Part shown: positions 41,130 through 45,661 of the stretch, in pieces
Numbering within the stretch: position 1 is the first letter of the stretch
Layout of the letters: every line of letters begins with the position of its first letter
Sequence record: NZ_CP023785.1
Strand: one strand, 5' to 3'
Length of the DNA: 64,000 nt
Source: a plasmid
Program-made: the position numbers and the translations under genes
Notes under the pieces: model-generated
What the model was told of the DNA's origin: nothing
The model's database searches: none
Seen by the model: the letters and a program-made list of their open reading frames with translations, nothing else

Positions 41130-41640
41130 TTAAAAAGAAGTTATTTTTTTGCCAACCTTAAACAATCTATAACACCAGCTTGATCCCTTAATTTTGGAAA
41201 AAAATTTCGGAAGATTAACATAATTATTCATAATTTTAGTAAATTCGCGGTGAATTTTCTTTTGCAAGTGTATCTGTTTCATTACACCGCACCCTAGAAG
41301 AATATCTGGTGAAAACATCATTGTAGTATTATAAATGCATTGTGCAACATAAAAAGCTTCAATTTCCTAAAAAGGATGATCTTCAGGTAAATCTTGACCT
41401 TTAATAGTTCGTCGAGCGAGGCGTGAATATGGCAATCGCTTTTTTAGAATTAAATTTTCTTCGAGTTGATCATTTCGTTTTTGTAGCTGTTTCATCTGAT
41501 GAGCCGTAAGGAACGTGTCATCGTCAATTTTTACTTCATAATATTTTTTACCCAACGCGCAATCGAAGAAAGAGCGATGCTGTAATCCTATATAAAGCAT
41601 TTTGAGTTTTACCACTTTCGTGAAGTTTAACAATGGATTT
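41130..41640 (-). pseudogene. degenerate remnants: ROK fructokinase C-terminal fragment fused to an IS3 orfA-like fragment
   Basis: ...MMFSPDILLGCGVMKQIHLQ... parallels the scrK C-terminus (LMFSPDVIIFGGGVMKQRHML). The upstream part, LTAHQMKQLQKRNDQLEENLILKK, parallels the IS3 OrfA zipper. Frames are broken. Confidence 0.5.
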
Positions 41641-41981
41641 TGTGAACTATCCTCACTTAACTAAACTTAACAGTTCTTAACGCTTAAAGTGGTAGTTTTT
41701 ATTAGTAATTGATAGTAGTTAACATGATTTTGATATTTACGAAGAAAATGATATGCAAACCAGTCCGATTTTACTACAAAAGAAATATATTCGTATTTTT
41801 TAGCTCCTTGCTGACGATCAACATTTCTTTAGATGAGACGTTGGGATATTTTATAAATCATTCACATATGAGTTAGACAGTCAATGCATATCAGATATGC
41901 ATTGTAGAACGGATTAAAATATCGTGGATGAAATTATAGATGAATTAAAGGAGACAATTAGGAATTTATGGAGGTAATATA

Positions 41982-42500
41982 ATGAGAACATATAAAAATA
42001 AAGAAGAATTAAAAAAAGAAATAAATAGGACTTATACTAAATATATTTTAGAATTTGAAACTATTCCTGAAGAATTGAAGGATAAAAGAGTTGAGGAAGT
42101 GGATAGAACACCTGCTGAAAATTTAGCATATCAAGTTGGTTGGACGAATTTAATTCTAAAATGGGAAAATGATGAAAGAAATGGATTATCTGTTAAAACG
42201 CCTTCTGATCAATTTAAATGGAATCAGTTAGGAGAGTTATATAAGTGGTTTACAAATACCTATGCACATCTACCATTGAAAGAATTAGAGGAAATTCTCA
42301 ATCGTAATATTGATGATATTAACATGATGATTGATTCAATGAGTGATGAAGATCTATTCACTGCACACAAAAGAAAATGGGCAGACGAGGCAACCAAAAC
42401 GGCTGTATGGGAAGTATATAAATTTATTCATGTAAATACAGTTGCTCCATTTGGGACTTTTAGAACAAAGATAAGAAAATGGAAGAGATTAGCTTTGTAA
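41982..42500 (+). CDS. ClbS/DfsB-family four-helix-bundle protein (DUF1706)
   Basis: 172 aa. The pattern VGW..L.LKWE...G..V..P...FKWN.LG.LY..F...Y....L.EL...L......M........LF......W...TK....W......NTVAPF...R.KIRKW matches the family by recall. Confidence 0.6.
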   Translation: MRTYKNKEELKKEINRTYTKYILEFETIPEELKDKRVEEVDRTPAENLAYQVGWTNLILKWENDERNGLSVKTPSDQFKWNQLGELYKWFTNTYAHLPLKELEEILNRNIDDINMMIDSMSDEDLFTAHKRKWADEATKTAVWEVYKFIHVNTVAPFGTFRTKIRKWKRLAL

Positions 42501-43507: not shown

Positions 43508-43552
43508 TCTTAATCCAACTATATAGAAAATTTACGTTTTCTATATAGTTGG
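43508..43552. repeat. perfect 18-bp inverted repeat atccaactatatagaaaa-ttacg-ttttctatatagttggat
   Basis: Read directly. It shares the core TATATAGAAA with a second IR at ~44322-44363 (aattatatagaaag-attgtt-ctttctatataatt). Confidence 0.5.
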
Positions 43553-43725
43553 ATGTTTACAAGTTATATCTGGTTTAATAAGTTTTTTTCTGTTAGTCAT
43601 GGCATGTTTTATTGTGCTGGTTCATCAATATATTGAAATGTACTAAAATGAAATTTTCAGTTATGGTATAATATTTATGCTGTCTGCTACCCCGGCCTAT
43701 TATGGCAAGGGGAGGAGGTTGTATT

Positions 43726-43842
43726 ATGAATTACCTTTTCGATATGTTTTTTGCAATCTTAGCAGAAGTATCCGCGCATTACATCTGTAAATGGCTTGAT
43801 TGCAAAATTATTGCCAAAAAAGACAGTAAGCCTACCCGTTAA
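43726..43842 (+). CDS. Fst/Ldr-like type I toxin peptide (38 aa, MNYLFDMFFAILAEVSAHYICKWLDCKIIAKKDSKPTR)
   Basis: It has a strong GGGGAGGAGG RBS and an upstream TGgTATAAT extended -10 with a structured 5-prime UTR. A hydrophobic helix is followed by a WLD motif and a charged tail, resembling Fst-family toxins. Confidence 0.5.
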   Translation: MNYLFDMFFAILAEVSAHYICKWLDCKIIAKKDSKPTR

Positions 43843-43861
43843 TCTGAATAGAACGTAAAAG

Positions 43862-43892
43862 AAAACCACTAGCCCGCCAGCTAGTGGTTTTT
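43862..43892. terminator. bidirectional rho-independent terminator (aaaaccactagc-ccgcc-agctagtggtttttgg) with T/A runs on both strands
   Basis: Read directly. It sits between the toxin ORF and the convergent antisense promoter. Confidence 0.6.
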
Positions 43893-43925
43893 GGTGTATC
43901 ATGAATTACCTTTTCGTTAAAACAA
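43893..43925 (-). ncRNA. candidate RNA II-type antitoxin sRNA (convergent to toxin mRNA; contains complement of the toxin start region via direct repeat atgaattaccttttcg at 43901-43916)
   Basis: The minus-strand promoter is TTGTAT-16-TGgTATAAT (forward coords ~43925-43952). The transcript would run through the direct-repeat copy into the shared terminator. Confidence 0.4.
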
Positions 43926-44575
43926 TTATACCATATTTCCTAAAAAATACAATTAATAGACGAATTATCATTACCACTTTGATGAAAAAAGCTGACATAA
44001 ATTTTTCTTTTATTTTTATAATGAATAAACATTTATCAATAAGCTTTTGAAAGGCAGGATCGTACTTTGTTGATGATTGAGATATTGCTACATCAATCTC
44101 AGCAGTTAAGATTTTTTTGAATTGTTGCTTGAATTTTTTCTTTATCTAAAAAAATTGTATCTCCAGGATGCAACCCATTTTCTTTAAGAAATTCCTTTTA
44201 AATTGTTAATACTACTGAGTGCCCCACTTCTCTGAATTTTCTTTAACTTCTCCCTCCCCTTTTTTATTTGTATATACATTCATATACGCTTGTTAATATC
44301 AAATCAACCGTAGTCTCTCTTATGTCTAATTATATAGAAAGATTGTTCTTTCTATATAATTTAGACAATTTAAAAAATTAAGATTGCCTCCTTCTGTTTC
44401 CTTTCCTATTCATGTATACCATTTATTTTAAATTATTAAATCTATACCTATTTATCTGCTTTTTTGAAATAAATTAATAAATTTCAGAGTATACCAATTG
44501 ACAAAACACTCTATAATTGGTATAGTCCAATTATAGAGATACTCCTCTCCCCTACTTATCGAAAGGATGAATAAC

Positions 44576-45661
44576 ATGAAAAATACAGAAATATATCAAA
44601 AAATAGATACAATCATACTTCATATGCCCGATTATATAAAAGATTTTGTTCAAGATCGTGAGGATAAAGATCAATCACCTCGAACTACTTTAGAATATCT
44701 AAAAAATTATAAGCTCTTTTATGAATGGCTTCTGAGTGAGTCTATCGTTCCCGATACTTCAATCACCTCGATAAGACAGTTAACTGCCTATGATCTAAAC
44801 TTGTACAAATCTCATTTGAAACGTCGCACAAAGGAAAATGTAAAAAAAGAGACAACAAAAACTAAGCTCAAAGATAATAATAACTTAGGTCTATCTACTT
44901 CTACTATCAATAGAAATATCACAGCATTAAAGGTTCTATTTAAATATCTTTCGAAAAGTTCCAATAATCCTTTAGGAAAACCATACTTAGAAAATAATCC
45001 TATGGATCAAGTAGCAACTATCACAGATAAAACTACGTTAGCTGCCCGTGCAAACGCAATCGAGAAAAAATTATTTCTAGACGAAGATACACAAAATTAT
45101 CTAGATTATATTGCCAATGAATATAAAAAAACTTTGAGCAAACGAGCTTTGATCTATTATCAACGAGATGTAGAAAGAGACCTGGCGATCAATGCATTGA
45201 TTTTAGGATCTGGATTAAGACTCTCCGAGGTTGTAAATATTAATTTAGAGGACCTATCTTTAGAAAAGAATAATGTGGTAGTAACTAGAAAAGGAAATAA
45301 GAGAGACGCAGTAAATATAGCAGCATTTGCAATGGAATATTTAGCTAATTATCTAGCTATTCGGAAAGAACGATACAAAGTAACAGAAAACGAAAAAGCT
45401 TTATTTCTAGCAATTTATCAAGGAGAAGCCAAGCGTATATCCGGTATTGCAATCGAACGGATGGTAGCAAAATATTCAAAAGGATTCAGAGTCCAAGTCA
45501 GTCCACATAAATTACGTCATACTTTGGCTACTAGACTCTATCAACAGACAAATTCATTGGTATTAACTGCCCAACAATTGGGACATACAAGTACAAATAC
45601 AACAACTTTATATACTCATATAGACAATGCAGCTACAATTGATGCTTTGAACGCTTTGTAA
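44576..45661 (+). CDS. tyrosine recombinase (XerC/XerD-like, ~362 aa)
   Basis: The C-terminal catalytic motifs LRHTLATRLYQQT, LGHTSTNTTTLYTH with R-H-R-Y are present. The internal ATG start has an AAAGGA RBS. Confidence 0.8.
   Translation: MKNTEIYQKIDTIILHMPDYIKDFVQDREDKDQSPRTTLEYLKNYKLFYEWLLSESIVPDTSITSIRQLTAYDLNLYKSHLKRRTKENVKKETTKTKLKDNNNLGLSTSTINRNITALKVLFKYLSKSSNNPLGKPYLENNPMDQVATITDKTTLAARANAIEKKLFLDEDTQNYLDYIANEYKKTLSKRALIYYQRDVERDLAINALILGSGLRLSEVVNINLEDLSLEKNNVVVTRKGNKRDAVNIAAFAMEYLANYLAIRKERYKVTENEKALFLAIYQGEAKRISGIAIERMVAKYSKGFRVQVSPHKLRHTLATRLYQQTNSLVLTAQQLGHTSTNTTTLYTHIDNAATIDALNAL

Follow-up and report, generated by a model that had tools for sequence, protein, structure and literature searches.

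The ClbS-like gene and its signals

A gene of the ClbS/DfsB family (DUF1706) was located at 41982-42500 of the stretch of plasmid DNA analysed here (record NZ_CP023785.1, 64,000 nucleotides; hereafter the window). It occurred as a single copy within the 64-kb window and was the sole intact gene between an IS3 element and xerS. The features of the locus are listed below.

41370-41660, minus strand: IS3-family transposase relic, annotated as an 82-aa hypothetical protein, of which residues 38-77 are 58-75% identical to annotated IS3 transposases (tblastn)
41882-41904, no strand: perfect 23-bp palindrome CAATGCATATC-A-GATATGCATTG, 78 bp upstream of the ATG
41970-41974, plus strand: Shine-Dalgarno sequence GGAGG, 7 nt 5' of the ATG, read directly from the sequence
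41982-42500, plus strand: ClbS/DfsB-family (DUF1706) gene, a 172-aa open reading frame with ATG start, corresponding to RefSeq WP_002287870.1
42129-42131, plus strand: codon of Tyr50, aligned with the catalytic Tyr55 of E. coli ClbS
42372-42497, plus strand: C-terminal segment (residues 131-172), net charge +7, 7 aromatic residues
42765-43022, plus strand: AbiEi antitoxin relic, a truncated, out-of-context middle portion of the gene (36% identity, E = 2e-15)
44129-44242, minus strand: 'addiction module antitoxin' relic containing an in-frame stop

The product was computed as a hydrophilic protein of 20.7 kDa (pI 6.9), and RefSeq already names the gene of WP_002287870.1 as ClbS/DfsB family. Sequence analysis detected neither a signal peptide nor a transmembrane segment in it (Kyte-Doolittle maximum over 19 aa of 0.62; average of -1.30 over the first 30 N-terminal residues). 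Residues 131-172 were nearly invariant within the clade of the window protein, and the AlphaFold (AF2) model placed the last helix at residues 146-171; this segment corresponds to the strongly conserved cationic and aromatic C-terminal helix of DfsB (PMC4773401).

The palindrome at 41882-41904 could be an operator or a hairpin of the 5' untranslated region. When the DNA upstream of the gene was aligned with that of its S. agalactiae and M. gnavus orthologues, no conservation was seen, palindrome included, so that the palindrome cannot be called a conserved operator. Promoter and terminator scores around the gene did not exceed the shuffle background, and no terminator was found. A search for LexA (Cheo) boxes yielded no site upstream of the gene and a count across the window equal to chance, and SOS regulation of the gene is therefore without evidence.

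Plasmid setting and decayed flanks

A 9-kb query around the gene was 100% identical to E. faecium megaplasmids of 134-234 kb (e.g., NZ_CP011282.1) from clinical, bovine and other isolates. Enterococcus plasmid records with the gene numbered 214; in 206 of them it was intact, at 99% identity or more. The exact protein was indexed in 13,640 blocks of an assembly collection, some of them on contigs of 2.7-2.9 Mb, and the identical allele also occurred in E. faecium with a different downstream context. A second E. faecium plasmid allele, 87% identical in protein, was likewise intact.

The window itself was a mosaic of PTS and sugar-utilisation modules, AbiE/AbiH and toxin-antitoxin systems, a circular bacteriocin, XerS and insertion sequences of types IS3, IS30, IS256, IS66 and IS982. 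No PKS/NRPS or clb genes were found in the window or in the matching plasmid records. Pfam scanning of ten stop-to-stop flank fragments returned no significant match, a ROK-like trace of 17 bits scoring highest, and the relics of the flanks were identified by tblastn. The AbiEi relic covers residues 78-164 of WP_139896894.1, the middle third of the gene, and no match to the AbiEii toxin was found beside it. In other contexts within E. faecium, the antitoxin decayed at 44129-44242 is complete and has a Fic/Doc toxin as its partner.

The earlier note had described a stand-alone gene on an accessory region, flanked by degenerate fragments and with no genotoxin cluster nearby. Each part of this description agreed with the data, namely the single copy in the window and the lack of PKS/NRPS genes in matching records, the 9 kb shared at 100% with E. 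faecium megaplasmids, and the IS3 transposase, AbiEi and addiction-module antitoxin relics around the gene.

Family, fold and catalytic tyrosine

Residues 1-169 of the window protein matched positions 1-166 of the 166-position Pfam profile PF08020 (DUF1706; E = 3.1e-53). The score of 180.6 bits, compared with a gathering cut-off of 24.2 bits, places this match far beyond chance. NCBIfam and PADLOC scans of the protein gave zero matches to any model, which leaves it with neither a curated protein-naming model nor a defence-system assignment.

Solved structures matched the window protein over a wide range, from 4n6c (S. pneumoniae B1RZQ2, E = 3e-90), 5com (C. difficile 630 'Tn1549-like CTn5-Orf2', E = 4e-88) and 5cqv (S. 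agalactiae, E = 6e-81) through 5cog (yeast IRC4, E = 2.5e-52) and 5civ (P. dendritiformis DfsB, E = 3.7e-43) to 5cof (E. coli UTI89 EcDfsB, E = 2e-15) and 6anr (ClbS, E = 5.5e-12). Identity was 71-77% to the solved streptococcal and C. difficile structures and 24-26% to E. coli ClbS. The AlphaFold model (pLDDT 73, pTM 0.76) was aligned by Foldseek with 4n6c (TM 0.88), 5com (0.87), 5cog (0.86) and 5civ (0.84), and with ClbS 6anr at TM 0.81 (rmsd 2.9 A), while metal-dependent DinB proteins reached only a TM of about 0.6 with E > 0.05. The predicted fold is thus a DinB-like four-helix bundle with extra short helices.

Tyr50 of the window protein fell in the same column as ClbS Tyr55, within a conserved Y-x-x-GW motif (BLASTP, MAFFT), and the FKWN-x-LG and NT-x-x-P motifs were also common to both proteins. 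Tyr55 was reported critical for ClbS activity, the Y55F protein losing protection (bioRxiv 10.1101/431098). Tyr50 was invariant in the clade of the window protein; since some distant DUF1706 members carry R, F or I at this position (MAFFT), its retention is informative. The ClbS/DfsB assignment proposed earlier from the sequence therefore held on the three counts suggested for checking it: the DUF1706 match, whose absence had been named as refuting, was full-length at 180.6 bits, the model resembled the ClbS fold at TM 0.81 to 6anr, and the catalytic tyrosine was kept, Tyr50 aligning with Tyr55.

Spread, mobility and constraint

Scanning one genome per species recovered relatives of the window protein in 316 species. 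The best 80 of these 316 species' relatives were 74-79% identical to the window protein, and their loci spanned Clostridia, Tissierellia, Bacilli, Collinsella, Leptotrichiaceae, Pasteurella bettyae and one Odoribacter MAG. The nearest copy in these data was only 79% identical; because a 100% copy would rank first, the species representative of E. faecium presumably lacks the allele, and the gene is accessory in this species.

All open reading frames within 4 kb of the gene in the 80 closest loci were clustered, and recurrent clusters were named by Pfam. A large serine recombinase was the most frequent neighbour (24 of 80 loci), often 61 bp upstream on the same strand. It was followed by a Peptidase_S51 protein (dipeptidase E-like; 15 loci, upstream on the same strand and 55 bp away in 13), an XRE regulator and a MobA/MobL relaxase (12 loci each), DUF3847 (10 loci) and TnpV (9 loci). 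At least one mobile-element hallmark lay within 4 kb in 30 of the 80 closest loci. Copies in M. gnavus adjoined a type IV secretion coupling protein, those in S. agalactiae lay in a variable chromosomal island, and the family matched phrog_4809 (E = 3.6e-74), with copies also in phage records. Peptidase_S51 looked like an operon partner in some Lachnospiraceae-type contexts. Across the 80 loci no conserved functional partner was found, only mobile-element genes, the XRE regulator and Peptidase_S51 being recurrent, and none of these recurrent neighbours of the relatives was present in the window, where the gene is surrounded by IS3, IS30, XerS and toxin-antitoxin relics. As neither upstream DNA nor partner genes were conserved, the gene is a self-contained cargo of integrative, mobilizable and prophage elements.

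Compared with 65 orthologues, pN was 0.14 and pS 0.75 (synonymous sites saturated), dN/dS was at most 0.06 where computable, and 88 of 172 positions were invariant among 27 clade members. These values indicate a window protein that is strongly constrained and functional, and more than recently spread. Conservation across the 80 closest copies and several phyla, despite a pS of 0.75, was unusual for a small accessory gene. The 52% identity to yeast IRC4 points to inter-kingdom transfer and to a heavily constrained surface.

Relation to characterised family members

E. coli ClbS (6ANR, 7MTL) resembled the window protein in Pfam family, fold (TM 0.81), cytoplasmic character and length (170 versus 172 aa), and shared with it Tyr55/Tyr50 and the Y-x-x-GW, FKWN-x-LG and NT-x-x-P motifs. 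It differed by its low identity (24-26%) and by its place in the other main clade of the family, which contains EcDfsB 5cof; it is encoded in the pks island downstream of clbQ, and the window gene was linked to neither. ClbS in the strict sense is defined by location in the pks island and by high identity or a match to the naming model, and the window protein had none of these.

The Gram-positive DfsB homologues 4N6C, 5COM and 5CQV were closest to the window protein (71-77% identical, E = 1e-81 to 1e-90) and are single-domain proteins of 172 aa like it. 5COM is named as a gene of a conjugative transposon (Tn1549-like CTn5), matching the mobile-cargo pattern of the relatives. In contrast to ClbS, these three proteins were deposited without assigned function; the depositors of the DfsB homologue structures held the family to be non-enzymatic (PMC4773401), a view later overtaken by the work on ClbS.

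On pUTI89-like plasmids of multidrug-resistant E. coli, EcDfsB (5COF) is likewise an orphan DUF1706 gene beside transposases, in hospital-successful pks-negative lineages, and such plasmid clbS-like genes were proposed as a fitness determinant conferring colibactin resistance (Maklin et al. 2025, bioRxiv 10.1101/2025.11.17.686825). EcDfsB differed from the window protein by its Gram-negative clade (27% identity) and by its ISL3 context, compared with IS3, IS30 and XerS in the window. The DfsB of P. dendritiformis (sibling lethal factor) shared 47% identity, the fold and the cationic C-terminal helix with the window protein; it reportedly leaves the cell and is cut by subtilisin, which yields a lethal C-terminal peptide of 12 kDa, whereas the window protein had no secretion signal. 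IRC4 of S. cerevisiae (5COG; 52% identical, TM 0.86) has a genome-integrity phenotype and differs in being eukaryotic and chromosomal.

The most direct functional information came from orphan ClbS-like proteins. Colibactin is inactivated by ClbS, a cyclopropane hydrolase of the cytoplasm. In the work of Silpe et al. 2022 (Nature, PMC8907063), ten orphan ClbS-like proteins with 25-80% identity to ClbS were expressed, and each of them shielded E. coli from the DNA damage and lambda induction caused by colibactin. The most divergent of them, WP_193641739 of Bifidobacterium longum subsp. infantis (26.8% identical to ClbS), protected as strongly as ClbS when expressed heterologously, with lambda titres of 10^2.56 PFU/ml for the B. 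longum protein, 10^2.28 for ClbS and 10^6.18 for the vector (PMC8907063, source data). Protection by ClbS was reported to be intracellular and not shared via supernatant (PMC8907063), which fits the absence of a signal peptide or transmembrane segment in the window protein.

The B. longum gene-block text was an error-laden machine reading, and a frameshift-tolerant protein-to-DNA alignment was used. The full-length window protein aligned to the block with a score of 394 (83 for ClbS) and at least 64.5% identity at legible codons. No near-identical copy was found by blastn of the block against the fetched loci. A protein database search with the legible residues recovered two 179-aa proteins, P0270 and P0271, which shared the N-terminal extension of the block and were at least 87-88% identical to it at legible codons. 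P0270, at least 88% identical to the block, aligned gap-free with the window protein at 70% identity and 87% similarity, figures that belong to a database stand-in matched to the error-laden block and not to the exact WP_193641739. The stand-in and block alignments place the colibactin-protective B. longum protein in the clade of the window protein. Both are orphans of this same tight clade, the B. longum gene coming from a pks-negative Gram-positive gut bacterium; the B. longum protein differs by its length (179 aa, with a 7-residue N-terminal extension), its GC-rich gene and its host.

Proposed function and alternative explanations

Belonging to the ClbS/DfsB family, with its fold and catalytic tyrosine, cytoplasmic in character, under purifying selection and carried as mobile cargo, the window protein would act as a hydrolase of the colibactin warhead in the cytoplasm and provide orphan, single-gene immunity on an E. 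faecium megaplasmid, a reading to which we give a probability of roughly 0.55. Colibactin neutralisation is the most likely activity because a relative of about 70% identity was shown to perform it, and the earlier idea of protection from the colibactin-like alkylators of neighbours is accordingly the best-supported reading. Colibactin, or a colibactin-like cyclopropane electrophile, released by neighbouring pks+ Enterobacteriaceae would enter the cell and be bound by the window protein, where Tyr50, by analogy with ClbS, would promote the hydrolytic opening of the cyclopropane warhead. With the warhead opened, DNA would be neither alkylated nor cross-linked, and the SOS response and prophage induction would be avoided. 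Since colibactin induced a prophage of E. faecium (strain E1007; PMC8907063), the species is a relevant target. The persistence of an intact gene in 206 Enterococcus plasmid records (at least 99% identity) while its neighbours decayed was also counted for immunity. For the E. faecium protein itself, the activity shown by the B. longum protein, its expression and selection by colibactin are all inferred.

Several observations were counted against a role in colibactin resistance. Identity to ClbS was only 24-26% and the NCBIfam scan was null; the searches for a promoter, a terminator and a LexA box gave nothing convincing; the family includes the P. dendritiformis DfsB, reported as a bacteriocin precursor; and the clade is also present in taxa with no obvious exposure to colibactin (Streptococcus agalactiae, Granulicatella, Pasteurella bettyae). 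In addition, the 52%-identical IRC4 has an effect on spontaneous Rad52 foci that requires no colibactin, and the 88 invariant positions out of 172 suggest a more general role.

Such a role could be a general protection of the genome, either by DNA binding through a cationic surface or by detoxification of a widespread electrophile of endogenous, dietary or microbial origin, selected in the Gram-positive/IRC4 clade and leaving colibactin hydrolysis as a side activity. Deletion of yeast IRC4, whose product is close to the window protein in sequence and fold (52% identity, TM 0.86), increases spontaneous Rad52 foci without colibactin, an effect complemented by the open reading frame, and impairs sister-chromatid recombination (PMC2134942, PMC3554610). 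ClbS itself is described with structures 7mtl/7mtt as binding DNA and shielding it from nucleases. The protein was strongly constrained despite saturated synonymous sites, and its clade was recovered from 316 species-level genomes of several phyla, including Granulicatella, S. agalactiae and Pasteurella bettyae, a conservation and host range exceeding what exposure to colibactin obviously explains; DUF1706 was also reported in about 95% of healthy gut metagenomes (2026 preprint). ClbS, however, gave no protection from mitomycin C in the assays of Silpe et al. (PMC8907063), hence its protection is agent-specific, and the gene is accessory and on mobile elements instead of being core. General genome protection is considered possible, at clearly less than even odds.

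The gene could also be a silent passenger, hitch-hiking on a successful plasmid lineage and either unexpressed or of no benefit in E. faecium. Promoter and terminator scores at background level, an upstream region unrelated to that of the orthologues and the relic genes all around would be expected of such a passenger, and the near-identity among plasmids reflects recent clonal spread and not long-term selection in the host. This explanation is nevertheless unlikely, as the open reading frame is intact and preceded by a strong ribosome-binding site among immediate neighbours that are all truncated or stop-bearing, the allele is also retained in another downstream context and on contigs of 2.7-2.9 Mb, and the second plasmid allele (87% protein identity) is intact too. 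A DfsB/Slf-type bacteriocin precursor, which would be released and yield, on cleavage by an extracellular protease, a cationic C-terminal peptide lethal to siblings or relatives, is very improbable in spite of the 47% identity (TM 0.84) to P. dendritiformis DfsB and of the resemblance of residues 131-172 (net charge +7, 7 aromatics) to the proposed Slf peptide (PMC4773401), given that the window protein has no signal peptide or hydrophobic segment, that Slf activity was reported within Paenibacillus only and its subtilisin cleavage site is unconserved in the family (PMC4773401), that immunity, export and protease genes are absent nearby, and that the B. longum protein of the same clade works intracellularly in protection against colibactin.

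Significance of a proposed orphan colibactin immunity gene in E. faecium

The gene is annotated under its family name in hundreds of RefSeq records, and structures of close homologues are solved. Immunity by orphan ClbS proteins is also published, with experiments in 2022 (PMC8907063), for plasmids of multidrug-resistant E. coli in a 2025 preprint (bioRxiv 10.1101/2025.11.17.686825) and for gut metagenomes in a 2026 preprint. The literature searched did not mention a DfsB/ClbS copy on E. faecium megaplasmids or an enterococcal test. The sole addition made here is that the validated B. longum protein, as judged from the alignments, shares a tight and widely mobile clade with the E. faecium gene.

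If the window protein is active in E. faecium, the megaplasmid of many clinical isolates would bear a ready-made colibactin immunity gene, with consequences for prophage stability and for the way in which E. faecium competes with pks+ Enterobacteriaceae in the gut. The presence of the protective B. longum protein in a clade of 74-79% identity suggests that much of the gut DUF1706 pool may encode colibactin immunity. More tentatively, the gene might be a colonisation determinant of hospital-adapted E. faecium, or else the whole Gram-positive/IRC4 clade might detoxify a widespread DNA-reactive metabolite. As a colonisation determinant, it would render strains and their prophages immune to colibactin from gut pks+ E. 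coli or Klebsiella, and would parallel, among Gram-positive bacteria, the plasmid clbS-like genes that were proposed to have helped E. coli ST131 and ST69 to expand. Were the clade directed at a widespread metabolite, colibactin would be merely one example among its DNA-reactive targets.

Other elements of the window

Several further elements were noticed in the window. The region 43688-43919 matched the Rfam model SpF66_sRNA at 42.1 bits (gathering score 42) but is in fact a small mRNA. Inside this match, an open reading frame with a Shine-Dalgarno sequence (43726-43842) encoded a 38-aa peptide, hydrophobic then basic (MNYLFDMFFAILAEVSAHYICKWLDCKIIAKKDSKPTR), which had no Pfam or PHROG match. 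A GC-rich hairpin followed by a T-run (about 43865-43893) came after it and reads as an intrinsic terminator, and immediately after it the toxin start region was directly repeated over 25 nt (43720-43744 versus 43895-43919, 92%). These parts are laid out as in type I toxin-antitoxin modules of the par/Fst-like kind.

The palindrome TATATAGAAA-N8-TTTCTATATA occurred in two copies only in the 64 kb, with 0 expected by chance, at 43514-43553 and 44325-44361 (cores 43520-43547 and 44331-44358), upstream of xerS (44567-45661). Its 10-bp arms and 8-bp spacer have the shape of the core sites of Xer-type recombinases. In E. faecium variants (L094, L095, L097 and L098), identity to the window was 99-100% as far as 43554, where the first palindrome ends. 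Beyond this point an intact Fic/Doc and antitoxin pair replaced the module resembling a type I toxin, and homology to the window restarted at 44019, at only 91%. The palindromes may mark a dif-like site of the plasmid or, by analogy with pdif modules, a point of cassette exchange.

Rfam matches to the RatA antitoxin RNA (4460-4548, plus strand, 51.5 bits) and to rli28 (4611-4793, minus strand, 105.7 bits) fell in a region, 4460-4793, annotated as 'putative holin-like toxin' through an offset of about 1.3 kb to a matching record; it would be a second type I toxin-antitoxin module on the plasmid, of the txpA/ratA type. With the help of the annotation of a matching record, an intact AbiEi/AbiEii pair was inferred at 2078-2740 (220 aa) and 2753-3652 (299 aa), in contrast to the AbiEi relic beside the ClbS-like gene. 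The plasmid bears several redundant or decaying stability and defence modules. Finally, an 87-aa open reading frame at 9548-9811 (plus strand), beside an IS30 copy, corresponded to a precursor of a circular bacteriocin of the uberolysin/carnocyclin family according to the annotation of the matching record.
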